A stretch of 20,705 bases of DNA, taken from UHGV virus genome UHGV-1358007; one strand, 5' to 3'. Of the stretch, positions 397-18,797 are shown one piece after another (position 1 is the first letter of the stretch; the number at the start of each line of letters is the position of its first letter). Source of the DNA: a virus. The translations under genes were made by a program, and so were the position numbers. The notes below the pieces were generated by a model that saw only the letters and a program-made list of their open reading frames with translations, had not been told where the DNA came from and did no database searches.

Positions 397-1612
397 CAAT
401 GCGAATGGTCGGGTACCTTCTGCCCGTAAGGTGAATGGTAAGGCGCTTTCAGCGGATATAACACTGACGCCGAAAGATATTGGTACGCTTAACTCAACAA
501 CAATGTCATTCAGCGGTGGTGCTGGTTGGTTCAAATTAGCAACGGTAACCATGCCACAGGCGAGTTCTGTTGTTTCAATTACGTTGATTGGTGGCGCTGG
601 ATTTAACGTGGGGTCACCTCAACAGGCAGGTATATCTGAACTTGTTTTACGTGCAGGTAATGGTAATCCGAAGGGGATTACTGGTGCTTTATGGCAGCGC
701 ACATCGACAGGGTTTACAAATTTTGCCTGGGTCAATACATCTGGTGATACTTACGATATTTACGTTGCAATCGGAAATTATGCGACTGGTGTAAATATTC
801 AATGGGATTATACCAGTAATGCCAGCGTGACGATTCATACGTCACCAGCATATTCTGCTAATAAGCCGGAAGGGTTAACGGACGGTACAGTTTATTCACT
901 CTATACGCCATCAGAGCAGTTTTATCCGCCTGGCGCACCAATCCCGTGGCCATCAGATACCGTTCCGTCTGGCTATGCCCTGATGCAGGGGCAGACTTTT
1001 GACAAATCTGCATACCCGAAACTTGCAGCGGCTTATCCGTCAGGCGTGATCCCTGATATGCGTGGCTGGACGATTAAGGGCAAACCTGCCAGTGGTCGGG
1101 CCGTATTGTCTCAGGAACAGGACGGCATTAAATCGCATACCCACAGCGCCAGCGCATCCAGTACAGATTTGGGGACGAAAACCACATCGTCGTTTGATTA
1201 CGGCACTAAATCCACGAATAACACTGGTGCGCATACCCATAGTTTAAGTGGCAGCACGAATGCAGCTGGTAATCACAGCCATAGAGATGGCCGTCGATTT
1301 AACCCCAGTGTTTTTAAAGATACTTATCAATATGGTTATACAAGCTCAGGTCAAAATACCTGGGGTGTACAAGGCTCAGTAGGTATGTCTACGGGGTGGT
1401 TAGCGAATACCAGTACAGATGGTAATCATAGCCATTCACTGTCCGGCACAGCAGCATCTGCAGGTGCACACGCGCATACTGTCGGTATTGGTGCTCATAC
1501 GCACTCCGTTGCGATTGGTTCACATGGACACACCATCACCGTTAACGCTGCTGGTAACGCGGAAAACACCGTCAAAAACATCGCATTTAACTATATTGTG
1601 AGGCTTGCATAA
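1..1612 (+). CDS. stf: Side tail fiber protein, 5'-truncated by the window edge (reading frame open from position 2)
   Basis: Frame continuous from window start into ORF 380..1612; tail-fiber-type repeats; His-rich C-terminal HxH repeats ([18 protein letters not shown]); followed by tfa with overlapping TAATG. Confidence 0.85.
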
Positions 1613-2196
1613 TGGCATTCAGAATGAGTGAACAACCACGGACCATAAAAATTTATAATCTGCTGGCCGGAACTAATGAATTTATTGGTGAAGGTGACGC
1701 ATATATTCCGCCTCATACAGGTCTGCCAGCAAACAGTACCGATATTGCACCACCAGATATTCCTGCTGGCTTTGTGGCTGTTTTCAACAGTGATAAGGCA
1801 TCGTGGCATCTCGTTGAAGACCATCGGGGTAAAACGGTTTATGACGTGGCTTCCGGCGACGCGTTATTTATTTCTGAACTCGGTCCGTTACCGGAAAATG
1901 TTACCTGGTTATCGCCGGGAGGGGAATATCAGAAGTGGAACGGCACAGCCTGGGTGAAGGATACGGAAGCAGAAAAACTGTTCCGGATCCGGGAGGCGGA
2001 AGAAACAAAAAACAGCCTGATGCAGGTAGCCAGTGAGCATATAGCGCCGCTTCAGGATGCTGTAGATCTGGAGATCGCAACGGAGGAAGAAAACTCGTTG
2101 CTGGAAGCCTGGAAAAAGTATCGGGTGTTGCTGAACCGTGTTGATACATCAACTGCACCGGATATTGAGTGGCCTGCTGTCCCTGTTATGGAGTAA
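1612..2196 (+). CDS. tfa: Tail fiber assembly protein (lambda Tfa-like, 194 aa)
   Basis: Translation [34 protein letters not shown]... matches lambda Tfa as I remember it; start overlaps stf stop. Confidence 0.9.
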
Positions 2197-2675
2197 TCGT
2201 TTTGTGATATGCCGCAGACACGTCGTATGCAGAAACGTGCTGCGGCTGGCTGGTGAACTTTCAATAGTGCGAGTATTGAATGATTTCCAGCTGTTATCGA
2301 TTTTATGTGTTTTTTGCATGAGGGGATTTCCACCACCTCCCACCGACCATCTAAGACTTTATGCCACTGTCCCTAGGACTGCTATGTACTAGGAGCGGAT
2401 GTTAAACTCAGACTCGTTTCAGCTACATTGCGTTTTGAATAATATTCCATCATAATAACTCTTTGAAAAATGTGATCTTTTCATTTATAACACTGATGAC
2501 TTGCTTATCTCATTGGGATATCGGAGGAGAATACTTAACTATGACAAGCCCGATTATTATGACACTGGCTATATTATATAGATTGATATTAAAATGTAGG
2601 ATTAGGTTCTTGCCAAGGTGTCAAGATTTACAGATAGGTTTAAAACCATATAAATATGTTTTACGGTGAGATACA

Positions 2676-2702
2676 ATACATATTGTAAGGCATAAACGCT
2701 TG
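2676..2702 (+). promoter_or_regulatory. Candidate sigma70 promoter for the cargo gene (-35 ttgtaa, extended -10 tggtaaaat)
   Basis: Motifs about 30 nt upstream of the 2734 start; spacing is short (15 nt); AT-rich context makes chance matches likely. Confidence 0.2.
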
Positions 2703-2733
2703 GTAAAATTTTAATTATTGGAAGAAGCTAATC

Positions 2734-5700
2734 ATGGAACCCATATCAATTACAGTGGCAACTTATGTAGCAACTAAACTTATTGATCAATTCATCTCTC
2801 AAGAAGGATATGGTTGTATTAAGAAAGCATTATTCCCCCAAAAAAGATATGTGGATAGATTATATCAACTAATTGAAGAGACGGCAATTGAGTTTGAAGA
2901 AACATATCCAGTAGAAAGTGGAGCAATACCATTTTATCATTCCGAACCATTGTTTGAGATGTTGAATGAGCACATCTTTTTTAAAGAGTTCCCTGACAAA
3001 GAGATATTATTAGACAAGTTCAAAGAATATCCAAGTATCACTCCCCCAACTCAACAACAACTCAGCCTTTTTTATGAGATGTTATCATTAAAAATCAATA
3101 ATTGTTCGAAGTTAAAAAAGCTACATATCGAAGAAACGTATAAAGAAAAAATATTCGATATTAATGAAGAGCTCATTCAAGTCAAACTTATTTTACGGTC
3201 TATAGATGAGAAACTAACTTTTCACTTAAGTGATGATTGGTTAAATGAAAAAAATAGTCAAGCAATAGCTGACTTGGGAGGTCGATACACACCCGAACTC
3301 AACGTAAAGCTAGAAATAGCAGAGATATTTGATGGCCTCGGTAGAACTAATGATTTTTCTAAAATATTTTATTCGCATATAGATAGCTTTCTGGTCGCTG
3401 GAAAGAAATTACATAGTTGCGATGTAATTTCCTCAGAATTATTTGAAATAAACCAGTCCTTAAAAGAAATTTCTGATATATATCAGGAGATTAATTTTTC
3501 TAAATTAGATGAAATCCCTATAAATAAATTTAATAACTATGTTTCTAGCTGCCAGACAGCTATTGGCGGAGCGGTATCAATATTGTGGGAACTCCGAGAA
3601 AAGTCAGAGCAAGTAGGTGAAACCAAGCATTACAGTGATAAGTATTCATCTACTCTGCGAATGCTTCGGGAATTTGACTATGCGTGCAATGAATTACGTA
3701 TATTCATTAATTCAACAACAGTGAAGTTGGCTAACAACCCATTCTTACTTCTCGAAGGAAAAGCAGGAATTGGTAAGTCTCATTTACTGGCTGATGTGAT
3801 TAAAAATCGAATTGCTTCTGGGTATCCTTCACTACTCATACTAGGGCAACAACTTACTTCAGATGAATCTCCATGGTCACAAATCTTCAAGAGATTACAG
3901 CTTAAAATCACTTCTCGTGAATTCCTAGAAAAACTGAATTTATATGGCAAAAAAACAGGAAAAAGAGTCTTAGTTTTTATTGATGCTATTAATGAAGGTA
4001 ATGGAAATAAATTCTGGAATGACAATATTAACAGTTTTGTCGATGAAATCAGATGCTTTGAATGGCTTGGTCTGATAATGTCAGTCAGAACAACATATAG
4101 AAATGTAACAATTTCACATGAGAATGTTGTGCGAAATAATTTTGAAATTCATGAACATATTGGATTCCAGAACGTTGAGTTGGAAGCGGTTAGTCTATTT
4201 TATGATTATTACAATATTGAGAGGCCTTCATCTCCTAACCTTAATCCAGAGTTTAAAAATCCTCTATTTCTTAAGTTATTGTGTGAAGGCATTAAGAAAA
4301 ATGGTTTAACCAAAGTGCCTGTTGGATTTAATGGGATTTCAAATATTTTTAACTTTTTAGTTGAAGGGGTAAATAAATCATTAGCATCGCCAAAAAAATA
4401 TGCATTCGATCCCAGTTTTCCTCTTGTTAAAGATGCTCTCAATGAAATCATAAAATTCAAATTAGAGATTGGTCGTAATAGTATTTCACTTAAAGATGCT
4501 CACTCAGTGGTTCAATCTGTAGTTAATGATTATGTTGCTGATAAAACCTTCCTCAGCGCCTTGATTGACGAAGGATTATTGACTAAAGGCATAGTGAGAA
4601 ATGATGATAATTCTACTGAGGAAGTAGTTTATGTGGCTTTTGAAAGGTTTGATGATCATTTAACTGTTAATTTTTTATTAAATGATGTTGAAAATATCGA
4701 AAGTGAATTTAAGCCTGATGGTCGTCTGAAAAAATATTTTCATGATGAATGTGATTTTTATATAAAATCGGGAATAGTAGAGGCGTTGTCTATTCAATTG
4801 CCAGAAAGGTATGAAAAAGAGCTTTATGAATTTCTGCCGGAGTTCAGCAATAATCTTAAATTACTAGAAGCCTTTATTGATAGCTTGATATGGCGCGATA
4901 TTAAGGCTATTGATTTCGAAAAAATTAGACCTTTCATCAATGAACATGTTTTTAAATTTAAAGATAGTTTTGATCATTTCCTCGAGGCAGTGATCTCTAT
5001 TTCAGGTTTAGTTGGCCATCCCTTTAATGCTAATTTCTTGCATGATTGGCTAAAAGATTATTCTTTGGCAAATCGAGATTCGTTTTGGACTACAGAACTT
5101 AAATATAAATATAGTGAAGACTCAGCATTTAGGCATCTAATCGATTGGGCATGGGCCAGAACAGATAAAAGCTTTGTTTCGGATGAGTCAATCGAGCTAG
5201 TTGCAACTAGTTTATGCTGGTTTTTAACTTCTAGTAACCGAGAACTTCGAGATTGCTCAACTAAGGCTTTAGTGAGTTTACTCGAGCCAAGAATTCCTGT
5301 ATTGAGAAAAATAATTGATAAGTTTTATGGTGTAAATGATCCTTACGTTTGGGAAAGAATATTTGCAGTTGCATTAGGCTGTACATTGCGAACTGATAAT
5401 ATTAAAGAACTAAAATATTTAGCCGAAACTGTTTACCAAAAGGTATTTTGTTCTAAGTATGTGTATCCAAATATATTACTTAGAGATTATGCTAGAGAGA
5501 TTATTGAATTTGCTAATCATCTTGGATTGGAACTTGAAAGCATTGAATTATCCAAGACTAGACCACCCTACAACAGCATTTGGCCTGACAAGATTCCTTC
5601 AAAAGAGGAACTAGAGTCCCTTTATGATAAAGAACCTTATCGGGAACTCTGGAGCTCTATTATGGAAGATGGTGACTTTTCACGATATACTATTGGAACA

Positions 5701-7188
5701 AATTATAATCATTCTGATTGGTCTGGTTGCAAGTTTAATGAAACCCCTGTTGACCGTAAGCAAGTTTTTAAAACTTTCAAATGTAAACTAACTGATCAAC
5801 AAAAAGACTTGTATGATGCCACAGATCCTTTCATTTATGATGATAAATGCGAAGGAATTAAATTTGGTCGTGTGGTCGGTAGAAAAGCACAGGAAGAAAT
5901 AAAGGCGAGCAAGAAATTATTTAAGAATTCATTGTCATACGATCTGTTAAGTGAGTTTGAAAATGAAATAGAGCCATACCTGGATCATAATAATAATCTG
6001 CTGGAAACTGATAAACACTTTGATCTTCGACTAGCTCAACAATTTATATTCAATCGTGTTATAGAGCTTGGTTGGGATCCGGAGAAGCATGGTAATTTTG
6101 ACCAACAAATAGGAACTGGACGTGGACGTAGAGAGGCATTCCAAGAACGGATTGGTAAAAAATACCAATGGATTGCTTATTATGAATACATGGCAAGGCT
6201 AGCCGATAATTTTACTCGTTTTGAAGGTTATGGTGACGAACGAAAGGAAAATCCATACCAAGGGCCATGGGAGCCTTACGTAAGAGATATAGATCCCACT
6301 ATCTTACTTAAAGAAACTGGAACGAAAAAAATAAGCAATAAAGAAATGTGGTGGCTTAATGATGAAGTGTTTGATTGGACTTGCTCTAATGAAGACTGGG
6401 TTAAAAGTTCTACTACTATAACTAATTCATATGCTTTTATTGAAGTTAAAGATGATAATGGTGATGAATGGATAGTATTAGAAAGTCATCCATCATGGAA
6501 AGAACCAAAAATTATTGGAAACGATGATTGGGGGCACCCACGAAAAGAGGTTTGGTATCAGATCAGAAGTTATATCGTTAAAGTTGAAGAATTTGAAAAT
6601 TTTAGATGTTGGGCAATAGCTCAAGACTTTATGGGCAGGTGGATGCCGGAATGTACTGATAGATACCAATTATTTAATAGGGAGTACTATTGGTCCGAAG
6701 CATTTAAGTCTTTTAAATCAGATTATTATGGTGGATCTGACTGGACTTCGGTAACAGACCGGGAGTCTGGAGCTAAGATAGCTGATGTTAGTGTCACTTC
6801 GATTAATTATTTGTGGGAAGAGGAGTTCGACAAATCAAAAATAGAAACTTTGAATTTTTTGAAGCCTAGTAACTTAATCTTTGAAAAGATGGGATTAAAA
6901 AGTGGGGAAGTAGAGGGTAGCTTCAATGATGAAAATGGAACTATGGTTTGCTTTGCAGCTGAAGCTGTATATGCTTCAAAGCCGCATCTACTTGTTAAAA
7001 AAGAACCATTTTTAACAATGTTAAGGGACAATGGTTTTGAAATCGTTTGGACATTATTAGGTGAAAAGGGCGTTATAGGGGGCTCACTCATATCAAGTCA
7101 TCATTATGGTCGACAGGAGTTTAGTGGAGCATTTTATTATGAAGACAGTCAGCTAACAGGAAGTCATAAAACTAGCTTTACGAGATAA
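2734..7188 (+). CDS. Large NACHT/STAND-like P-loop NTPase (1484 aa); candidate single-gene anti-phage defense protein with unassigned N- and C-terminal domains
   Basis: Uninterrupted 4455-nt ORF with RBS ggaagaag upstream of ATG; Walker A GKAGIGKS (nt 3757-3780); Walker B-like VLVFIDAINE; MSVRTT and HIGFQNVELEAVSLFYDYY resembling NACHT sensor and GF motifs; AT-rich versus flanks. Confidence 0.8.
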   Translation: MEPISITVATYVATKLIDQFISQEGYGCIKKALFPQKRYVDRLYQLIEETAIEFEETYPVESGAIPFYHSEPLFEMLNEHIFFKEFPDKEILLDKFKEYPSITPPTQQQLSLFYEMLSLKINNCSKLKKLHIEETYKEKIFDINEELIQVKLILRSIDEKLTFHLSDDWLNEKNSQAIADLGGRYTPELNVKLEIAEIFDGLGRTNDFSKIFYSHIDSFLVAGKKLHSCDVISSELFEINQSLKEISDIYQEINFSKLDEIPINKFNNYVSSCQTAIGGAVSILWELREKSEQVGETKHYSDKYSSTLRMLREFDYACNELRIFINSTTVKLANNPFLLLEGKAGIGKSHLLADVIKNRIASGYPSLLILGQQLTSDESPWSQIFKRLQLKITSREFLEKLNLYGKKTGKRVLVFIDAINEGNGNKFWNDNINSFVDEIRCFEWLGLIMSVRTTYRNVTISHENVVRNNFEIHEHIGFQNVELEAVSLFYDYYNIERPSSPNLNPEFKNPLFLKLLCEGIKKNGLTKVPVGFNGISNIFNFLVEGVNKSLASPKKYAFDPSFPLVKDALNEIIKFKLEIGRNSISLKDAHSVVQSVVNDYVADKTFLSALIDEGLLTKGIVRNDDNSTEEVVYVAFERFDDHLTVNFLLNDVENIESEFKPDGRLKKYFHDECDFYIKSGIVEALSIQLPERYEKELYEFLPEFSNNLKLLEAFIDSLIWRDIKAIDFEKIRPFINEHVFKFKDSFDHFLEAVISISGLVGHPFNANFLHDWLKDYSLANRDSFWTTELKYKYSEDSAFRHLIDWAWARTDKSFVSDESIELVATSLCWFLTSSNRELRDCSTKALVSLLEPRIPVLRKIIDKFYGVNDPYVWERIFAVALGCTLRTDNIKELKYLAETVYQKVFCSKYVYPNILLRDYAREIIEFANHLGLELESIELSKTRPPYNSIWPDKIPSKEELESLYDKEPYRELWSSIMEDGDFSRYTIGTNYNHSDWSGCKFNETPVDRKQVFKTFKCKLTDQQKDLYDATDPFIYDDKCEGIKFGRVVGRKAQEEIKASKKLFKNSLSYDLLSEFENEIEPYLDHNNNLLETDKHFDLRLAQQFIFNRVIELGWDPEKHGNFDQQIGTGRGRREAFQERIGKKYQWIAYYEYMARLADNFTRFEGYGDERKENPYQGPWEPYVRDIDPTILLKETGTKKISNKEMWWLNDEVFDWTCSNEDWVKSSTTITNSYAFIEVKDDNGDEWIVLESHPSWKEPKIIGNDDWGHPRKEVWYQIRSYIVKVEEFENFRCWAIAQDFMGRWMPECTDRYQLFNREYYWSEAFKSFKSDYYGGSDWTSVTDRESGAKIADVSVTSINYLWEEEFDKSKIETLNFLKPSNLIFEKMGLKSGEVEGSFNDENGTMVCFAAEAVYASKPHLLVKKEPFLTMLRDNGFEIVWTLLGEKGVIGGSLISSHHYGRQEFSGAFYYEDSQLTGSHKTSFTR

Positions 7189-7467
7189 AAATGAATCTCA
7201 GAGCTGAATATATAAGTAGTATTAGAAACCGGGTTATACTTAAGAAATCAATCTTAAGTGTGGCAGTCGAATGGTAGCTAATATGCTAGCGGCGCTAATG
7301 CCTGTTTGTTGCTCATAACAGGCATTCACTTTAGTTATGGCAGAAAAGTATACATGCTGGGTTGGGAAAGTGTGAAAGAAAGGAAGATTGCTGCGCCGTT
7401 TGTCGTCACGTTTATCTTCATTGGCTATGCAAGTCGTAATAAAAGGTGGGACAAAACTGAGACACAT

Positions 7468-7500
7468 AAAGCCTCGCAATGGCTTGCAAGGCTTTACATG
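7468..7500 (-). promoter_or_regulatory. Candidate sib/tI-like hairpin distal to int across the att core
   Basis: Near-perfect 10-bp stem agcctcgcaa/ttgcaaggct with loop tggc, about 80 bp from the att core on the b-region side, analogous in position to lambda sib. Confidence 0.2.
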
Positions 7501-7571
7501 TTTTGATGTGGTGGGACGTGTGAGCGCAGTGTTGATGGGGTAATGCTTTGAATTAGAAGCGGATTCTTATA

Positions 7572-7617
7572 ATTCGTAATGCGAAGGTCGTAGGTTCGAC
7601 TCCTATTATCGGCACCA
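7572..7617 (+). other. Phage attachment core (attP): 46 bp matching the 3' end of tRNA-Thr (thrW, anticodon CGU) through CCA; not a complete tRNA
   Basis: attcgtaatgcgaaggtcgtaggttcgactcctattatcggcacca matches the thrW 3' segment as I remember it; upstream sequence does not continue the tRNA; integrase gene adjacent. Confidence 0.65.
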
Positions 7618-7631
7618 TTTAAATCAATAAG

Positions 7632-8795
7632 TTACACATCATTAGTACCTTCCTTATTTTTTGACTGGGACAAATTTGGGACCGATGGGTTCAGGATCGA
7701 GTCTATTTGCCGTGCGTGTTCGGTAAGGTGATTAGGTGCAAGGTGAGCATATCGACGAACCATTTCGATAGACTCCCAGCCTCCCATTTCCTGTAACACT
7801 GACAACGGGACTCCGGCTTGAACCAGCCAACTTGCCCAGGTGTGTCTCAAGTCGTGAAATCTGAAATCATCAATACCAGCCCGTCTCAGCGCCGCTTTCC
7901 AGGCTGTGTTTGCGTCATACCGCATCTTCCTTACTGTTGGCGCTTTCGTTCCGTCTGGTTTGGTACAGCTTTCCTTGTACACAAATACCCAACGGTGATG
8001 ATTCCCGATTTGTTTTTTCAATACGCGACATGCAGTATCATTCAGCGCAACGCCAATTGCGCGGTTTGATTTACTCTCTTCCGGGTTTATCCATGCCACC
8101 CGGCGCTGCATATCTATTTGTTGCCATTCAAGGTTGATGATGTTCGAGCGTCTTAAGCCTGTTGCCAGTGCAAATTCAACAACAGACTTTAATGGCTCCG
8201 GACATTCATCAATCAGCCTTTGTGCTTCATGGGGCTCCAGCCAGCGGATCCGTTTATTCTTTGGTTGAGGCACTTTAATAATTGGTGCCTTATCCAGCAT
8301 TTTCCATTCACGCTCTGCGGCTCTTAGTAGGGCCTTTATAAATGAAAGATGCGTAGCCTTCGTTGCAACGGACGCTGGTTTTGGCGTGTATTCTGGAACA
8401 GGTTTCCCTTTTTTTCTGCATGCTTCTGCCCTGAGTTTCCAGTTTTCCTCATGACGCCGGTTCGTCATTTTCTGCATTGCTGAATAAATTTTTGATTCAG
8501 TAATGTCTCTTAGTTGCATTCCTGCGAAATGTTGAAGCCAGAATCCGATCCGGCTTTTGTCATCGTCCAGTGATTTTTTATGTGCTTTCTCTTCAAGCCA
8601 CCTGACACACGCTTCCTCGAACGTTATATCAGGTATTTCACCAAGTTTGCTGACCCGCCATGCTTCAGCCTTTAGCTTGTCATGGAGTTCTGTCGCCTGC
8701 CTTTTGTCCTTTGTTCCAAGAGACTGTTTAAATCTTTTACCGTTCGGCAATGTGAAACTGGCGTACCATATTTCACCTCTGCGGAAGAGTGACAT
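7632..8795 (-). CDS. int: Tyrosine integrase (P22 Int-like, 387 aa)
   Basis: [33 protein letters not shown]... with C-terminal [15 protein letters not shown]...VRRYAHL catalytic region; RBS aggaaag upstream; next to att core. Confidence 0.95.
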
Positions 8796-9022
8796 TTTCT
8801 TTCCTCTGTTATGCCATCACCCGCGCTCACCTGGACAGTATGCAGCGGAGACTGAAGAGCCGCAATGCAGGCTTGTCGTGTTGTGAGGTAAGGAGATTTA
8901 TTCTTAGTGGGATCTTTGCGTGTTGCCTGAAGACGCCCTGTGCGTATCCAGTTAATGGCAGTCGGTCTGGATATCTTGAGAAAATGACAGGCCTCATCGA
9001 GTGTGAGGCTGTATGGCTCCAT
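8672..9022 (-). CDS. xis: Excisionase (P22 Xis-like, 116 aa), start taken at internal ATG with RBS
   Basis: [36 protein letters not shown]...; agaggtga RBS before ATG at 9022; overlaps int 3' end as in lambdoid int-xis pairs. Confidence 0.8.
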
Positions 9023-9327
9023 TATTTCACCTCTTGTTGTGACATTGTTGAAAAATGGATACCTGCTCGTTGCTGCCAGACGATCCAACCGAGAGTCATA
9101 TCCCATGCCATGTATTCGTTATCGCCGTTTTTTGCTCTCCGACGATCTACTAAGTCACCGAAACGCTTTTCCATGAATAATTCATAAGCTTCGCGTTCAT
9201 CTGGTTCTACTTCCAGAGATAGGAGTGCGATTTCATAAGCACGGCGCTCAATATCGTCTCGCACGTCAAGGCTGCTGATACGCTCTTTAATTTCTTTAAT
9301 CAGTTCTTTGTCGGTAAAAGTGGTCAT
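9022..9327 (-). CDS. Hypothetical early-left protein (101 aa, acidic)
   Basis: ORF translationally coupled to xis and the upstream gene; similar in size and order to yfdT-like genes of enterobacterial prophages (from memory). Confidence 0.6.
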   Translation of the reverse strand: MTTFTDKELIKEIKERISSLDVRDDIERRAYEIALLSLEVEPDEREAYELFMEKRFGDLVDRRRAKNGDNEYMAWDMTLGWIVWQQRAGIHFSTMSQQEVK

Positions 9328-9689
9328 TATGCTCCAGCCTCCGGTGCTTTTGGCATTACTGCCCAGTGAGTGATATTGACGTTTTCAAGGTCCCCGACCT
9401 GAAATGTCCACTGCCATTCTCCGGTTTCTTTTTGTCCCCAGGTGTACCAGAGAGAACGCCAGCCAATTAGCCAGCCTTCTCCGTTAGCATCGAATAACAA
9501 AACACTTTCATTTGCTGGTGGCAGTTCAGTTGACACTGGTATTACTTTGTTTTCCTGTGCTGCACATTTAGCTTCAAGCGCATCGAATTTACGCACCAGG
9601 TATTCAGCATCTGTTTCATTCACTTTCAGATCTCGCGGTACACATCTCCCACGAAGAAACCCTTCCATTTCGAAAACATTCATGCGCAT
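9327..9689 (-). CDS. Hypothetical early-left protein (120 aa)
   Basis: ORF in operon context; ATGA overlap with downstream gene. Confidence 0.6.
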   Translation of the reverse strand: MRMNVFEMEGFLRGRCVPRDLKVNETDAEYLVRKFDALEAKCAAQENKVIPVSTELPPANESVLLFDANGEGWLIGWRSLWYTWGQKETGEWQWTFQVGDLENVNITHWAVMPKAPEAGA

Positions 9690-10216
9690 TTGCGTAACTC
9701 CGATAACTCGTTAAAACGTTCCATAAACATCCCGTAGGCATGGCCCGGTGCCTGTGGAATCACTTTGAACATCTCTGTTGCCGGGATACCTTCCAGTACA
9801 GGCCAGAAAGAGCCATCATCAAGCCCGAGATCGCGGCGTTCGGTTGCCAGCATAATGAGATCGGCATATTTCACTGGCGTGCTCATAACAGGAGGTAACC
9901 CGTATTTCTCACGGATTACGGCGTCTATTTTTTCTTCCATCCGTTTATAGTCAGGAAGAAGTCGTTTCAGTGGTGCGGGGATGTCCTGGCAATATGCTTC
10001 TGTTGCATCATGCATTAAAGCTTCAAAAGCAAATTCCTGTGGCACCAGCTGGCTGCAAAGCACCGCATGTTGGGCGACACTGTAGAAGTGTGAAAGATGT
10101 CCTGCAAAGCGACAGATATTTGAAAGGGAAACCGCGATATCGTTAATAACGATGTCGTCTTTATTTATCCTGTCATAATAAAAATGCTTCCCGGAAAAAG
10201 TTTTAATAAATGACAT
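9680..10216 (-). CDS. HD-domain phosphohydrolase (YfdR-like 5'-deoxynucleotidase family), 178 aa from internal ATG
   Basis: H...HD motif (SVAQHAVLC ... LMHDATEAY); ggagaa RBS 7 nt before ATG at 10216; the ORF track's longer start at 10243 lacks an RBS. Confidence 0.75.
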   Translation of the reverse strand: MSFIKTFSGKHFYYDRINKDDIVINDIAVSLSNICRFAGHLSHFYSVAQHAVLCSQLVPQEFAFEALMHDATEAYCQDIPAPLKRLLPDYKRMEEKIDAVIREKYGLPPVMSTPVKYADLIMLATERRDLGLDDGSFWPVLEGIPATEMFKVIPQAPGHAYGMFMERFNELSELRKCA

Positions 10217-10299
10217 TTTGTTCTCCACGTATATGCGCTGCACCGCGCTGAATTCGGGTAAAAGGAAGCCCTCACCGTCCGGCGATTATTGAGTCAATT

Positions 10300-10690
10300 A
10301 CATTTCCATAAATGCCCCCGCAGGGGCGGTTAGTTTCTCCACAAAACAGAGAAGAACACCTGCGGTAGCAGCCGCCCGGATGGATTGGGTTATAAGCCCG
10401 TCGTCCGGTGATGCTCTTCTCTGTTTTGTAAAAAGGGCGATACCAGCCGGAAGCAAGGGTACAAACTGGTACCGCCAAGACTACACACAGCATAAAGTTG
10501 TGGTGCCGGGTGCCTCCCGGTGCCTGGCGAAGGTTGCACACCAGGCGGGTGGGTATCCACAGAAGGTCGACTGTCAGCCTCAACCTTAACCCGCGTGCGC
10601 TGAGCCGCATTCACCACAACGCTAAGGATTCTCTCTGGTTGAAAATACTTAGCTGTTATGTGCCTGCTTTTAGCCACATCAGGCGAGGTG
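10300..10690. other. GC-rich, hairpin-rich, apparently non-coding block (candidate structured RNA or gene remnant)
   Basis: 15-bp perfect inverted repeat acaaaacagagaaga/tcttctctgttttgt (about 10342-10430) around a GC-rich 59-nt loop; further short stems (ccggg/cccgg, cctgg/ccagg); only overlapping ORFs on both strands without RBS. Confidence 0.3.
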
Positions 10691-11373: not shown

Positions 11374-11432
11374 TTCACATCTCCTCAAGTTATCAGTTAC
11401 TTGTTGATGGGGACCAGATTGTTAAAGAGCTA

Positions 11433-11456
11433 AGCGTCCTGTAGGGCGCTTTTTTG
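11433..11456 (+). terminator. Rho-independent terminator (stem agcgtcc/gggcgct, loop tgta, then tttttt)
   Basis: Hairpin plus T-tract seen directly; oriented to stop rightward transcription from the 10761 gene before the immunity region. Confidence 0.5.
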
Positions 11457-11620
11457 TTGCTAACGAATCATCCTGGACTTCATATGCCCCAGGCGGCTAC
11501 TTCGTGGGCGTCCTGCCTGTTCGTTATCTTTGATATAAAATCTAACTTAACTTAGTTATTATGGCAAGAGAAAACACCAAACTTTTCTTAGTTCGGTGCC
11601 TTAGTTAGAGAAGAGAGGTC

Positions 11621-12022
11621 TTAGAGTTCGTATTGAACTCCTTTGACTACACCAATGATAAGGCAATTACCATTGATAGGGATGTTGGGATACCGAGGAT
11701 TTAATGGCACTAAAAACTTTTGAGGGCCATCGATGACTAATTTTTTTACTGTAGCTTCGTTTGTTCCATCAAGTCGAGCGATGACTATTTTTCCATGACG
11801 AGGTTCTGCATCTGGATCTACAATCACTGTTGCGCCTTCTGGTATTGTTGGGAGGCCATTAGGGTTAGTCATGGAGTCACCTTTAACCTCTAATGCAAAT
11901 GAGTTATCACCAATCTTTAATGATGTATCTACCCACTTGTCCACTTCACTAAACACTTCTGCTGCCCTGCACTCAGTAAACTGCCCAGCCTGAACCCACG
12001 ATATTACAGGAACTCTGCGCAT
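11621..12022 (-). CDS. cI-type repressor C-terminal S24 peptidase domain only (133 aa); N-terminal HTH domain absent
   Basis: VQAGQF (Ala-Gly cleavage site), GDSM (catalytic Ser) and VKKL (Lys) conserved; aligns to lambda cI residues about 100-236; only 28 in-frame codons upstream before a stop, none a start codon; no SD. Confidence 0.75.
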   Translation of the reverse strand: MRRVPVISWVQAGQFTECRAAEVFSEVDKWVDTSLKIGDNSFALEVKGDSMTNPNGLPTIPEGATVIVDPDAEPRHGKIVIARLDGTNEATVKKLVIDGPQKFLVPLNPRYPNIPINGNCLIIGVVKGVQYEL

Positions 12023-12072
12023 GTTTGTGACGAGTTTGCCTTCAAACTCAGCACCATAAAGAATGTAATCTA

Positions 12073-12101
12073 TTGACGTATTGAAGAACTTCGCTAATAA
12101 T
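12073..12101 (+). promoter_or_regulatory. Candidate pR promoter (-35 ttgacg, 17-bp spacer, -10 aataat) for cro
   Basis: Motifs read directly about 25 nt upstream of cro RBS ggaggg. Confidence 0.4.
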
Positions 12102-12122
12102 AAAACTTAGTTTGGAGGGCGT

Positions 12123-12323
12123 ATGACAACTGACGATATCGAAAGCTACTTCGGCAGTATTGAGAAAGTTGCTGCTTTTTTCGGCATAACAACTGAAGCC
12201 GTTTATCAGTGGCGAAACCGTCCGGGCCAGTTAATTCCAAAAGGACGTGCAGCAGAAGCTGCATATAGAACTTGCGGACGGTTGCCATTTAAACCTGAGC
12301 TTTATGAAAAATCTAATGGATAA
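12123..12323 (+). CDS. cro: Cro-like HTH regulator (66 aa)
   Basis: Small HTH protein (IEKVAAFFGITTEAVYQWRNRPGQLIP) divergent from the repressor gene; RBS ggaggg. Confidence 0.75.
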   Translation: MTTDDIESYFGSIEKVAAFFGITTEAVYQWRNRPGQLIPKGRAAEAAYRTCGRLPFKPELYEKSNG

Positions 12324-12912
12324 ATCGATTAACAGAAACCACAGAACGATGAGGCTAACCGTGGGTAAGCATCACTGGAAAGTAGAAAAACAGCCTGAGT
12401 GGTACGTGAAAGCTGTCAGAAAAACTATCGCAGCGTTGCCGGGTGGTTACGCTGAAGCAGCTGACTGGCTGGATGTAACAGAAAACGCATTATTTAACCG
12501 CCTTCGTGCCGATGGCGATCAGATTTTCCCGCTGGGATGGGCAATGATTTTGCAACGTGCTGGTGGAACTCACTTCATTGCTGACGCTGTGGCGCAGTCT
12601 GCAAATGGCGTCTTTGTGTCTCTTCCTGACGTCGAGGATGTGGACAACGCCGATATTAACCAGCGCCTGCTGGAAGTCATTGAACAGATTGGCAGTTATT
12701 CCAGACAGATTCGTTCGGCAATCGAAGACGGTGTGGTGGAACCGCATGAGAAGACAGCAATTAACGACGAGCTGTATCTCTCAATTTCGAAGCTGCAGGA
12801 GCATGCAGCACTGGTCTACAAAATCTTTTGCATTTCAGAAAGTAATGACGCCCGCGAGTGTGCAGCTCCGGGCGCCGTGGCGTGTCGTGACTGTGGAGAA
12901 ACTAACGCATGA
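12304..12912 (+). CDS. Hypothetical regulatory protein in the cII position (about 202 aa); start uncertain (12247, 12304 or 12316)
   Basis: ORF directly after cro on the early-right strand; no strong SD at any candidate start. Confidence 0.55.
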
Positions 12913-14198: not shown

Positions 14199-14689
14199 TC
14201 ATGAGTCTTTTGAATGACGTTCAGAAATTCATTGAAGCCCATCCGGGCTGTACTTCCGGAGACATTGCGGATGCTTTTGCAGGTTACTCACGGCAGCGCG
14301 TTCTGCAGTCTGTAAGCAAGTTACGTCAGAGTGGGCGTGTGGCTCACCGTTGTGAAGGAGATACACGCAGACATTTCCCGCGCCTGACTGAGAGAGCGCA
14401 GGAGCCGGAACCACAACCAGTTCGTGAAACCAGACCTGTGCGCAATTTCTATGTCGGCACTAACGAGCCCCGGGTGATTTTGTGCCTGACCCGCCAGGCT
14501 GAAGAACTGGAGTCAAGGGGCTTATACCGTCGTGCTGCAACCGTGTGGATGGCGGCATTCCGTGAAAGCCACTCCCAGCCAGAACGAAACAATTTTCTGG
14601 CGCGTCGTGAGCAGTGCTTACAGAAAAGCAGCAAGCGCGCTGCATCGGGTGAAGAGTGGTATCTGTCAGGGAATTACGTGGGGGCGTAA
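14195..14689 (+). CDS. Hypothetical regulator with PerC-like C-terminal motif (164 aa)
   Basis: GTG start overlapping upstream stop; motif AEELESRGLYRRAATVWMAAF resembles the PerC/Pch activator family (from memory). Confidence 0.55.
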   Translation: MIMSLLNDVQKFIEAHPGCTSGDIADAFAGYSRQRVLQSVSKLRQSGRVAHRCEGDTRRHFPRLTERAQEPEPQPVRETRPVRNFYVGTNEPRVILCLTRQAEELESRGLYRRAATVWMAAFRESHSQPERNNFLARREQCLQKSSKRAASGEEWYLSGNYVGA

Positions 14690-15015
14690 TGACGACGTTA
14701 ACTCAATGCCAGCAGCAGGTGCTGGATATGCTGATTTCTTATCAGAAAGAGCGTGGCTTTCCGCCAACCAATCAGGAGGTGGCAACCATGCTGGGATACC
14801 GTTCAGTGAATGCAGCTGTGGAGCACCTCCGCGCACTGGAGAAAAAAGGCGTCATCACGATAAAGCGTGGCGTGGCCCGGGGTATCACTCTTCATACCGC
14901 GGTGAAGGACGACGACAGCGAGGCGGTCGGGATTATCCGCTCACTGCTTGCCGGTGAGGAAAACGCCAGGCTGCGTGCAGCCCACTGGTTACATGAGAGG
15001 GGCCTGAAAGTATGA
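14689..15015 (+). CDS. LexA N-terminal DNA-binding-domain-like protein without S24 peptidase domain (108 aa)
   Basis: LTQCQQQVLDMLISYQKERGFPPTNQEVATMLGYRSVNAAVEHLRALEKKGVITIKRGVARGITL aligns position-by-position with E. coli LexA residues about 4-70; TAATG coupled start. Confidence 0.75.
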   Translation: MTTLTQCQQQVLDMLISYQKERGFPPTNQEVATMLGYRSVNAAVEHLRALEKKGVITIKRGVARGITLHTAVKDDDSEAVGIIRSLLAGEENARLRAAHWLHERGLKV

Positions 15016-15420: not shown

Positions 15421-16220
15421 ATGAATAATCTGATGGTCATTGATGGTATTGAAGTTCGTCGTGATGCTTATGGGCGTTACAGCCTGAACGATCTGCACAG
15501 GGCAGCCGGGGGAGAACAACGAAATACTGGCTCTCCAATAAGCAAACCTGTGAATTGATTGAACAACTTTTCACCGAGGGTGGAATTCCGCCTCTGGAAC
15601 AAAATCAACCAGTTAGCGTCATTAATGGCGGAAATAACCAGGGGACGTATGTCTGCAAAGAACTGGTGTATGCCTATGCAATGTGGATCAGCCCGTCATT
15701 CCATCTGAAGGTGATCCGTACTTTCGATATGGTAACCAGCGTACCGGAAAAATTATCCGGGCAGGCTGCTGACAAGATGCAGGCTGGCGTGATTCTGCTG
15801 GACTTTATGCGCCGGGAGTTAAACCTGTCTAACTCATCTGTGCTTGGGGCCTGTCAGAAACTCCAGGAGGCTGTTGGCTTACCGAATCTGGCACCACGCT
15901 ATGCCATTGATGCTCCTGCTGACGCGCCTGATGGCTCAAGTCGCCCTACGCTGTCGCTGAGTGCACTGCTGAAACAGTATGGTATCCGCCTGACAGCTAA
16001 TCAGGTATATCACCAGATGGCGAAGCTGGGGATCGTCGAGCAGCGCGAACGATACAGCCGTACCGCGATTAACAACATCAAAAAATTCTGGTCGCTGACA
16101 GCGAAAGGCTGCATGTTCGGCAAGAACATCACCAGTCCCGCAAATCCGCGCGAGACGCAGCCGCATTTCTTCGAATCCCGATTCCCTGAGCTGTTAAAGC
16201 TGCTCGATACCGTACATTGA
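15421..16220 (+). pseudogene. KilA-N/KilAC antirepressor-like gene interrupted by a frameshift near 15540-15555 (or sequencing error)
   Basis: Short ORF from ATG about 15421 with strong RBS aggag encodes MNNLMVIDGIEVRRDAYGRYSLNDLHRAAGG (KilA-N N-terminus) and stops after about 43-45 codons; the rest of the domain (GTYVCKELVYAYAMWISPSFHLKVI) continues in ORF 15555..16220, which has a TTG start and no RBS. Confidence 0.5.
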
Positions 16221-17801: not shown

Positions 17802-18797
17802 TTATCCATGTCGAGCCCACCCCTCTGAGATAAGGTTATGATTTATGCCGAACTGACCTGGGACGCCTGGAACTTGCAAACGCTGTAACATCCCCTCAGT
17901 GCGGAATTGATATGAAAACGTGTCTGGAGCCTCTAAAATGCTTCTGACAGATACGTACGATGCCTGGTTAACTGTTCCTAAGATAGCATTTGGGTCAAAA
18001 GGTTCACCCAGATGCATCTCAGTTTTGAAATCTTCATAAATTTCTTTGATCAGACCGTAAAGGTGCTCATCTGGTTTTTCCACCGTAAGACCTAAATCGT
18101 TTACCGCTTCAATCCTATTTATAGTGTAGTCATGGCTACCAGAATCACTACAAAGGAAACTTACAATTTTCTCAATGCTTTCACTATCAGTGAGTTGGTG
18201 AGACAGTAGTTTTCTTGCGAGCATTTGAATCTGCGCTTTAGCTCGATAGACTTTTCCAAGTACCAAGGGATGAACCTTTTCACTTAATGCAAGGAGGATC
18301 TGTGCAAGTGAGGCATCATCTTTGATACTCAAATCATGCTTAACTACTTCAAGATAGCCATTGATTTCTTCAACACTGACTGGAAGTTGAAGTGGCTGCC
18401 CATTGATTATGACCGAAGGGTTAAGTGGTGTATTCACACTTGGATCGATTGGCCCTAAGGTTGCCTGCTTGGTCATAACCAAGTTGTTCGCGCCAAGGCA
18501 CATTATCGTCCCAGAACTATGGCATTTTGATGGGATTATGATTTCGAGTTCTTTACAAAACTGACGAAGCAGGTTTACAAGGCTCCATGCTGTTAAAGTG
18601 TCGCCGCCTCGCGTATAGAGCACGAGGCTAATTTTTTGAACATCACCTATCACATCAAGATGATTGACGAACAGATCGAATACATCAGCGCTGATTTGAG
18701 CTTCTTGGTTTGGTCTATCACCTGTTACATAGCATAATACTTTTGAATTGCGTGCTTGTTCCAGTTGCGCATACAGGGCTTTACGCTGCTCAAACAT
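17802..18797 (-). CDS. Clp-fold serine protease of the SDH/S49 (SppA-like) family, 331 aa; moron encoded antisense to late transcription
   Basis: Motifs LVLYTRGGDTLTAWSL, KCHSSGTIMCLGAN and ATLGPIDPS resemble ClpP/SppA/SDH peptidase signatures; lower GC than phage genes; opposite strand between Q and holin. Confidence 0.75.
   Translation of the reverse strand: MFEQRKALYAQLEQARNSKVLCYVTGDRPNQEAQISADVFDLFVNHLDVIGDVQKISLVLYTRGGDTLTAWSLVNLLRQFCKELEIIIPSKCHSSGTIMCLGANNLVMTKQATLGPIDPSVNTPLNPSVIINGQPLQLPVSVEEINGYLEVVKHDLSIKDDASLAQILLALSEKVHPLVLGKVYRAKAQIQMLARKLLSHQLTDSESIEKIVSFLCSDSGSHDYTINRIEAVNDLGLTVEKPDEHLYGLIKEIYEDFKTEMHLGEPFDPNAILGTVNQASYVSVRSILEAPDTFSYQFRTEGMLQRLQVPGVPGQFGINHNLISEGWARHG

Follow-up and report, generated by a model that had tools for sequence, protein, structure and literature searches.

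Does the reading frame that faces the cro-like gene in this virus genome encode an immunity repressor that functions with its peptidase domain alone, or is it what remains of an ordinary repressor? We addressed this question for the window, by which we mean the whole stretch of 20 705 nt that was analysed; the features discussed below are collected in the table. The coordinates confirm that the minus-strand ORF and the cro-like gene face each other across a gap of 100 bp. Applying Pfam to the 133-aa product we found Peptidase_S24 as the sole domain (residues 5-126, E=2.8e-28) and no HTH domain. Among solved structures the top match is the lambda cI fragment 101-229 (2HO0, E=7.5e-28), and the alignment covers the ORF over its whole length: Ala12-Gly13 (VQAG), Ser50 (GDSM) and Lys93 (VKKL) align with the Ala-Gly site, the serine of GNSM and K192 of lambda cI. 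The frame spans the linker, in which Ala12-Gly13 lies, and the S24 domain for autocleavage and dimerisation; the domain, the cleavage site and the Ser/Lys dyad are all intact. In these respects the locus agrees with the original prediction, which had described a protein that resembles the C-terminal part of lambda cI, begins 11 residues before the cleavage-site Ala and lacks the HTH domain.

Table. Coordinates of the repressor remnant, the deletion junction and the neighbouring regulatory features in the window
Feature	Position	Strand	Remarks
Putative PL, TTGCCA-17-TAGATT	11539..11567	-	Promoter-like site downstream of the repressor gene, intact
Operator-like palindrome CTAACTTAACTTAG	11542-11555		Within spacer/-10 of putative PL, intact
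Weaker operator-like palindrome	11578-11591		Intact in the window
S24 ORF (133 aa)	11621..12022	-	Codons 76-208 of the 208-aa cI/c2-type parent repressor
Leftover in-frame codons 51-75 (LAKFFNTSIDYILYGAEFEGKLVTN; LAKFF...KLVTN)	12023..12097	-	End of HTH_3 and linker, start codon absent
Sigma-70-like site TTGACG-17-AATAAT	12073..12101	+	Putative promoter, made by the deletion; 10/12 consensus matches
Deletion junction GCTAA/TAATAAAAC	12097..12098		From the alignment with L001
Proximal operator-like remnant	12097..12110		ATAATAAAACTTAG here, CTAATAAAACTTAG in relatives; 13/14 bp retained, overlaps the new -10
cro Shine-Dalgarno GGAGGG	12114..12119	+	Retained; duplex -9.8 kcal/mol
cro-like gene (66 codons)	12123..12323	+	Pfam P22_Cro, E=4.4e-11; intact, identical to relatives
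YmfL/CII-like activator gene	12361..12912	+	Intact; Phage_CP76, phrog_101, E=2.9e-70

Positions 11400-12400 of the window are 100% identical to over 500 complete E. coli genomes except for a gap of 222 bp; each of the matches listed for this 1001-bp query comes in two pieces and spans 1223 bp. Using the locus of E. coli strain ML35 (L001) as reference, the alignment to full-length homologues places the deletion endpoint between 12097 and 12098, where the 222 bp of L001 3699-3920 are missing as a single contiguous gap with perfect identity on both sides and only 1 bp of microhomology at the endpoints. The ML35 gene has 208 codons (L001 3222..3848) and is annotated as ‘LexA family protein’. Its product contains HTH_3 (residues 8-62) and Peptidase_S24 (residues 80-201) according to Pfam; the N-terminal domain resembles P22 c2 (1ADR, E=1.7e-9) and the C-terminal domain resembles lambda cI. 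This parent is an ordinary cI/c2-type SOS-cleavable repressor, and its immunity type is distinct from that of e14 YmfK. The e14 element of E. coli K-12 shows the same order of repressor, divergent cro-like ymfT and ymfL, and RefSeq even calls the gene downstream of our cro-like gene ymfL, but YmfK was rejected as parent because the identity of 42% is limited to the C-terminal domain while the N-terminus is unrelated.

Because the missing bases are exactly repressor codons 1-50, start codon included, together with 72 of the 97 intergenic bp, the 133-codon ORF corresponds to codons 76-208 of the parent. It is 100% identical to L001 3222-3623, its ATG is the internal Met76, the first internal methionine of the parent, and the 50 lost codons encode most of the HTH_3 domain. 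The missing part is encoded nowhere else in the window: a tblastn search with the parent N-terminal domain returned residues 51-75 alone (at 12097..12023), residues 1-50 gave no significant match in the whole window, and the deleted 222 bp gave only chance matches of at most 16 bp there. A translocation or inversion of the missing segment was therefore rejected. One exact 16-bp match to the deleted operator/-35 stretch (bases 181-196 of the deleted segment) lies at 3968-3983 inside the Avs2 gene and is probably due to chance in AT-rich sequence (E=9e-4). We also asked whether the breakpoint could be a mosaic joint that occurs naturally within this gene and rejected the idea, since partial matches are absent from the E. 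coli genomes. The lesion is of the classical repressor-null type, a known kind of mutant. Taken together, our findings argue that the 133-codon ORF, which cannot work as a repressor and probably goes unexpressed, is the deletion remnant of a two-domain immunity repressor, and we give this reading a probability of about 0.9.

The translation and transcription signals point in the same direction. Upstream of the ATG the frame stays open for 28 codons, in which a frame scan found no ATG, GTG or TTG, as had been described from the sequence; these are the parent codons 51-75 followed by three fortuitous codons that run antisense through the cro leader. A Shine-Dalgarno sequence is likewise missing before the ATG, the 25 nt upstream of which pair with the anti-Shine-Dalgarno sequence at -3.3 kcal/mol compared to -9.8 kcal/mol for cro, and the best candidate for a minus-strand promoter upstream of the 133-codon ORF reaches just 8.8 bits and has a poor -10. 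Because the ORF has neither a ribosome-binding site nor a good promoter, a silent fragment of a pseudogene is the most likely interpretation, and its product can neither bind DNA nor confer immunity.

The original prediction had left two explanations side by side, a truncated repressor (in a defective or virulent derivative) and a peptidase-domain protein whose DNA binding is supplied in trans. The first is borne out by the otherwise identical 208-aa allele and the 222-bp gap, whereas the second finds no support. A functional stand-alone S24 protein, i.e. an expressed fragment that acts with a separate DNA-binding partner (Cro or a LexA-DBD-like protein), in the manner of UmuD, or as a dominant-negative partner of the full-length repressor, would be in keeping with the intact domain, Ala-Gly site and catalytic dyad, as well as with the lambda cI fragment of equal extent (101-229) that was crystallised as a folded domain (2HO0/2HNF). 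The window also encodes a stand-alone LexA DNA-binding-domain protein without S24 in the early right operon (14689..15015, 108 aa, PF01726, E=2.9e-19), which might for instance interfere with LexA boxes of the host. However, this protein is a complete, full-length member of phrog_362, a conserved phage family, and coexists with an intact repressor in relatives, and for this reason we rejected it as the in-trans partner. Against a functional fragment also speaks that a Shine-Dalgarno sequence, a canonical upstream start and a good promoter are all missing, that leftover repressor codons lie upstream of the Met76 start, which is nothing more than the first Met past the deletion, and that relatives universally have the full-length gene. 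UmuD is comparable, as it also consists of an S24 domain on its own whose cleavage site is preceded by a short N-terminal arm, but the similarity of the ORF to UmuD (E=1.9e-5) is far below that to lambda cI (E=7.5e-28); moreover, the ORF has no ribosome-binding site and a demonstrable deletion origin, and it is flanked by cro and by a hypothetical gene of phrog_1744, with no umuC beside it. We therefore regard a functional stand-alone S24 protein as highly improbable.

If this family naturally started at Met76 with an overlooked ribosome-binding site, homologues of that form should exist, but none was found: in all 517 complete E. coli genomes with the repressor gene, the gene and the intergenic region are of full length and in one piece. 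The intact allele occurs in four phage records as well (vB_EcoM-689R6, vB_EcoS-569R4, mEp460_4F5 and, across the record ends, Kati). The exact 133-aa product is present on 18 public contigs, of which we examined eight places. These turned out to be contig ends (L004, L007), N-gaps (L002, L003), 1-bp homopolymer frameshifts (L008, L009) and other internal deletions (L005, L006), and none of the eight has the junction of the window. There is thus no evidence among the relatives for a family that starts at Met76, and what we saw at these places counts further against a functional fragment. The internal deletions in L005 (1372-1629) and L006 (443-670) affect the same N-terminal domain but differ from that of the window, with lengths of ~65 bp and ~95 bp as estimated by eye, while in the metagenome contigs L008 and L009 the 1-bp homopolymer frameshifts lie upstream of the ORF. 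These four independent lesions may be genuine repressor-null variants from gut populations, or they may have arisen during assembly.

Within the collections searched, the junction itself was found only in the window. A 90-nt asymmetric query spanning the junction detected it in none of the 512 E. coli genomes with the same cro leader, in which all matches start exactly at the junction; the junction 40-mer was not found in IMG/VR or in GTDB representative genomes, the junction 26-mer was not found in JGI metagenomes, and megablast with 40 bp containing the junction, a query subject to low-complexity masking, gave no match. This absence from the collections searched is what would be expected if the 222-bp gap were an artefact, i.e. 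an error of assembly, circularisation or scaffold closure, or an edit, and the real repressor were intact. Metagenome assemblies do often break here (the N-gap of L002 ends at 12097, a gap of L003 at 12081, and L004 and L007 start at 12023), and the record of phage Kati is linearised within the deleted segment. On the other hand, the endpoints contain no repeat that could collapse, with just the single bp of microhomology, and the flanks are free of errors at 100% identity. The case of L002 deserves a closer look: in this metagenome scaffold of 39.5 kb, a gap of 100 N (5826-5925) runs exactly up to the base that corresponds to 12097, the left endpoint of the deletion. The coincidence has a p of ~0.05 after allowing for selection bias and is weak, because any contig ending at ~12023-12100 gives a 133-aa call; it adds little to the case for an artefact, and the gap could also reflect the same deletion variant coexisting with the intact phage in that sample. 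Overall we consider a sequence artefact improbable, though less so than a functional fragment.

Next, we examined what the deletion removed on the operator side. The 100-bp spacer had been taken for an operator-like region, which does not apply in this form: 75 bp of it (12023-12097) are coding remnant of the repressor and only 25 bp (12098-12122) are cro leader, which carries 13 of the 14 bp of one operator-like palindrome and the Shine-Dalgarno sequence, while most of the real operator/promoter region is deleted. In the intact relative a rightward promoter-like sequence TTGACC-17-TAGCAT at L001 3891-3919 represents the putative native PR. The motif CTAAG-N4-CTTAG (with at most 1 mismatch) occurs three times in this relative compared to 0.12 expected, and 0 of 200 shuffled sequences reached three occurrences. 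The perfect palindrome CTAAGTAATCTTAG is situated immediately upstream of the PR -35 (L001 3871-3884), the palindrome CTAATAAAACTTAG immediately downstream of the PR -10 (L001 3920-3933), and the third, CTAACTTAACTTAG, within the leftward promoter-like site beyond the repressor gene (11542-11555 of the window). In addition, a weaker middle operator-like site, CAAAGATAGATTTG, lies between the PR hexamers. Phages mEp460 (96% identical) and LLS (77% identical) share both rightward palindromes and the -35, and the half-sites of the proximal palindrome are conserved in the two. The P22 c2 operators have the form TTAAG-N4-CTTAA with the consensus ATTTAAGATATCTTAAAT (PMC5175364), and the geometry of the operator-like sites of the parent, with 5-bp xTAAG half-sites at a spacing of 4 bp, is the same, which is consistent with its c2-like N-terminal domain. 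As the motif is enriched, its sites flank PR and overlap the putative PL, it is conserved at 77% identity and it has the P22 geometry, we infer that the CTAAG-N4-CTTAG palindromes are the operators of the repressor. Judging from these motifs, the deletion would have taken the putative PR hexamers, the presumed PRM region, in which the promoter of the repressor gene itself must be situated, and the distal and middle operators, i.e. two of three OR-type sites.

The junction itself offers a candidate replacement for PR. The -35 of the junction site consists of antisense repressor codons. Its -10 spans the junction, lies upstream of the retained Shine-Dalgarno sequence and is separated from the cro ATG by 21 nt. 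In a consensus scan this site is the best of the region, with 10/12 matches compared to 9/12 for the native PR, and a simple weight matrix gave 12.4 bits for the junction site and 11.3 bits for PR; it is the sole plus-strand position that scores this high in the 20.7-kb window. For better evaluation we simulated 8325 deletions in which the repressor start is lost and PR is destroyed while the Shine-Dalgarno sequence is spared. A usably placed site with at least 10/12 matches arose in 12 of the 8325 (0.14%), and the weight-matrix score was reached in 46 (0.55%). This rarity alone is no proof of selection, because it would be equal for a decaying prophage or a phage as the source. From its promoter-like sequence we consider that rightward early transcription may survive the deletion, without the repressor and without two of the three operators. 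True virulence, i.e. insensitivity to a homoimmune repressor, is uncertain because the retained 13/14-bp operator overlaps the new -10, and such a repressor might still act on the putative new promoter.

The proposed course of events is as follows. As the alignment shows, one 222-bp deletion beheaded a normal repressor, with loss of codons 1-50, of the start codon and of 72 of the 97 bp that separate the repressor gene from cro. The scar would set a repressor-derived -35-like hexamer 17 nt upstream of a new -10-like hexamer and so replace PR; cro, the cII-like gene, the replication genes and Q would still be transcribed in the absence of the repressor; and a temperate phage with tRNA-Thr as its integration site would have given rise to an obligately lytic derivative that forms clear plaques. 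On the sequence features we see about even chances that the deletion has produced such a derivative, viable although repressor-null (clear-plaque or lytic) and relying on the junction promoter.

The genomic context bears on this proposal. The window is colinear with SfIV/SfII/mEp460-type phage genomes and 99.6% identical to the prophage at tRNA-Thr beside proA in EC19 and relatives, but it is circularly permuted: positions 1416-7635 correspond to the right end of the EC19 prophage (tail fibre, Avs2) and positions 7572-10327 to its left end (integrase onward). The 64-bp overlap core at 7572-7635, which is the 3' end of tRNA-Thr, joins the EC19-type prophage ends. This attP gene order is expected for a virion, for a circular or replicating genome or for tandem prophages; it fits a free or replicating phage genome, although it could instead come from tandem prophages. 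The attP junction also occurs in two short IMG/VR contigs (L012, L013), which stop before the repressor gene.

Several further differences to EC19 and some cargo genes were recorded along the window. A segment of ~1.3 kb of EC19 that carries yfdQ and yfdP (L011 3257-4548) is not present, and the adjoining segments overlap by 12 bp at 10316-10327; the early left operon thus shows mosaic variation. An Avs2 (AVAST type 2) defence gene of 1484 aa (2734-7188) is flanked by the tail-fibre assembly gene and attP. It was identified by way of the matching EC19 prophage, which RefSeq annotates accordingly; the same protein, without any change, is widespread and found in 436 blocks of the public collection. 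In SfV/SfII-type phages this slot holds cargo genes for O-antigen modification. At 17802-18797 on the minus strand, in a moron-like position between the Q antiterminator and the lysis cassette, we observed a gene of 331 aa, whose EC19 counterpart is named ‘SDH family Clp-fold serine proteinase’ in RefSeq. The KilA-N gene (15421-16220; 269 aa in EC19, phrog_129) has a 10-bp deletion, AAAAACCGCC, at ~15520 that causes a frameshift after 33 codons and constitutes a second private lesion in the same phage. Its junction had no match in complete E. coli genomes in a short megablast query without positive control, and the 45-aa frameshift product is not on record.

Instead of a viable lytic phage, the window could derive from a defective or tandem prophage in which the lesion is neutral or host-protective, the early right operon is silenced and the promoter-like junction is a coincidence. 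A lysogen would survive the loss of its repressor best if PR were lost too; the 10-bp KilA-N frameshift fits general decay equally well; the closest relatives, e.g. the EC19 prophage, are degraded in their head and tail genes; and tandem elements are common at the tRNA-Thr att site (L015). However, the junction is the best plus-strand sigma-70-like site of the window and is correctly placed before cro, which was matched by only 12 (hexamer count) to 46 (weight matrix) of the simulated deletions. Apart from the 222-bp deletion, one SNP and the 10-bp KilA-N deletion are all that sets the right operon, from the junction through the lysis genes, apart from EC19, and the attP order is unlike that of a single integrated prophage. 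Inert decay is thus in our view rather unlikely, with a good deal less in its favour than a viable derivative with a junction promoter but clearly more than an artefact.

We compared the locus with known systems. The ORF aligns end to end with lambda cI 101-229, a member of the LexA-like MEROPS S24 group that also includes P22 c2, and the parent combines a P22 c2-like HTH domain with the P22 operator geometry; the copy in the window differs from these repressors in lacking the HTH domain, the start codon, the promoter and two operators, and cannot be a repressor. Like the clear (cI-) mutants of lambda, it has lost the repressor, a loss that leads to clear plaques. In lambda, c17 (a 9-bp duplication) and ri^c create rightward promoters that are independent of the repressor, while lambda vir is due to operator mutations (PMC3349717). 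The candidate junction site TTGACG-17-AATAAT, which is identified by its consensus match, would serve the same role as c17 and ri^c. The latter arise downstream of an intact pR, whereas in the window a single deletion destroys the repressor and would at the same time replace the putative PR. Ultravirulent derivatives of a prophage have been described in gut communities for the Roseburia phage Shimadzu, which changed in the cI-operator-cro region (bioRxiv 10.1101/575076). In that case the changes are point mutations in operators and cro and the repressor is kept, in contrast to the 222-bp deletion and the putative lytic change proposed here.

With regard to annotation, what looks like an immunity repressor made of S24 alone is a common repressor that has been beheaded and not a new regulatory architecture; annotating or counting it among stand-alone peptidases or repressors would therefore be wrong. 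One possibility is that the leftover C-terminal domain, produced at a low level, poisons the full-length repressor dimers of resident homoimmune prophages. More generally, the locus suggests a one-step route, in which beheading the repressor and rewiring PR coincide, from a widespread temperate tRNA-Thr/Avs2 phage of E. coli to an obligately lytic one; we put this forward tentatively, as a reading whose chances fall somewhat short of even. If the junction promoter works, the window would be a compact natural example of a temperate coliphage turned lytic in one mutational step. It would then bear on prophage-to-virulent transitions in gut communities and on the choice and engineering of lytic derivatives, and since the phage carries the Avs2 defence gene, a lytic variant would differ from the lysogenic parent in the way it spreads or kills.
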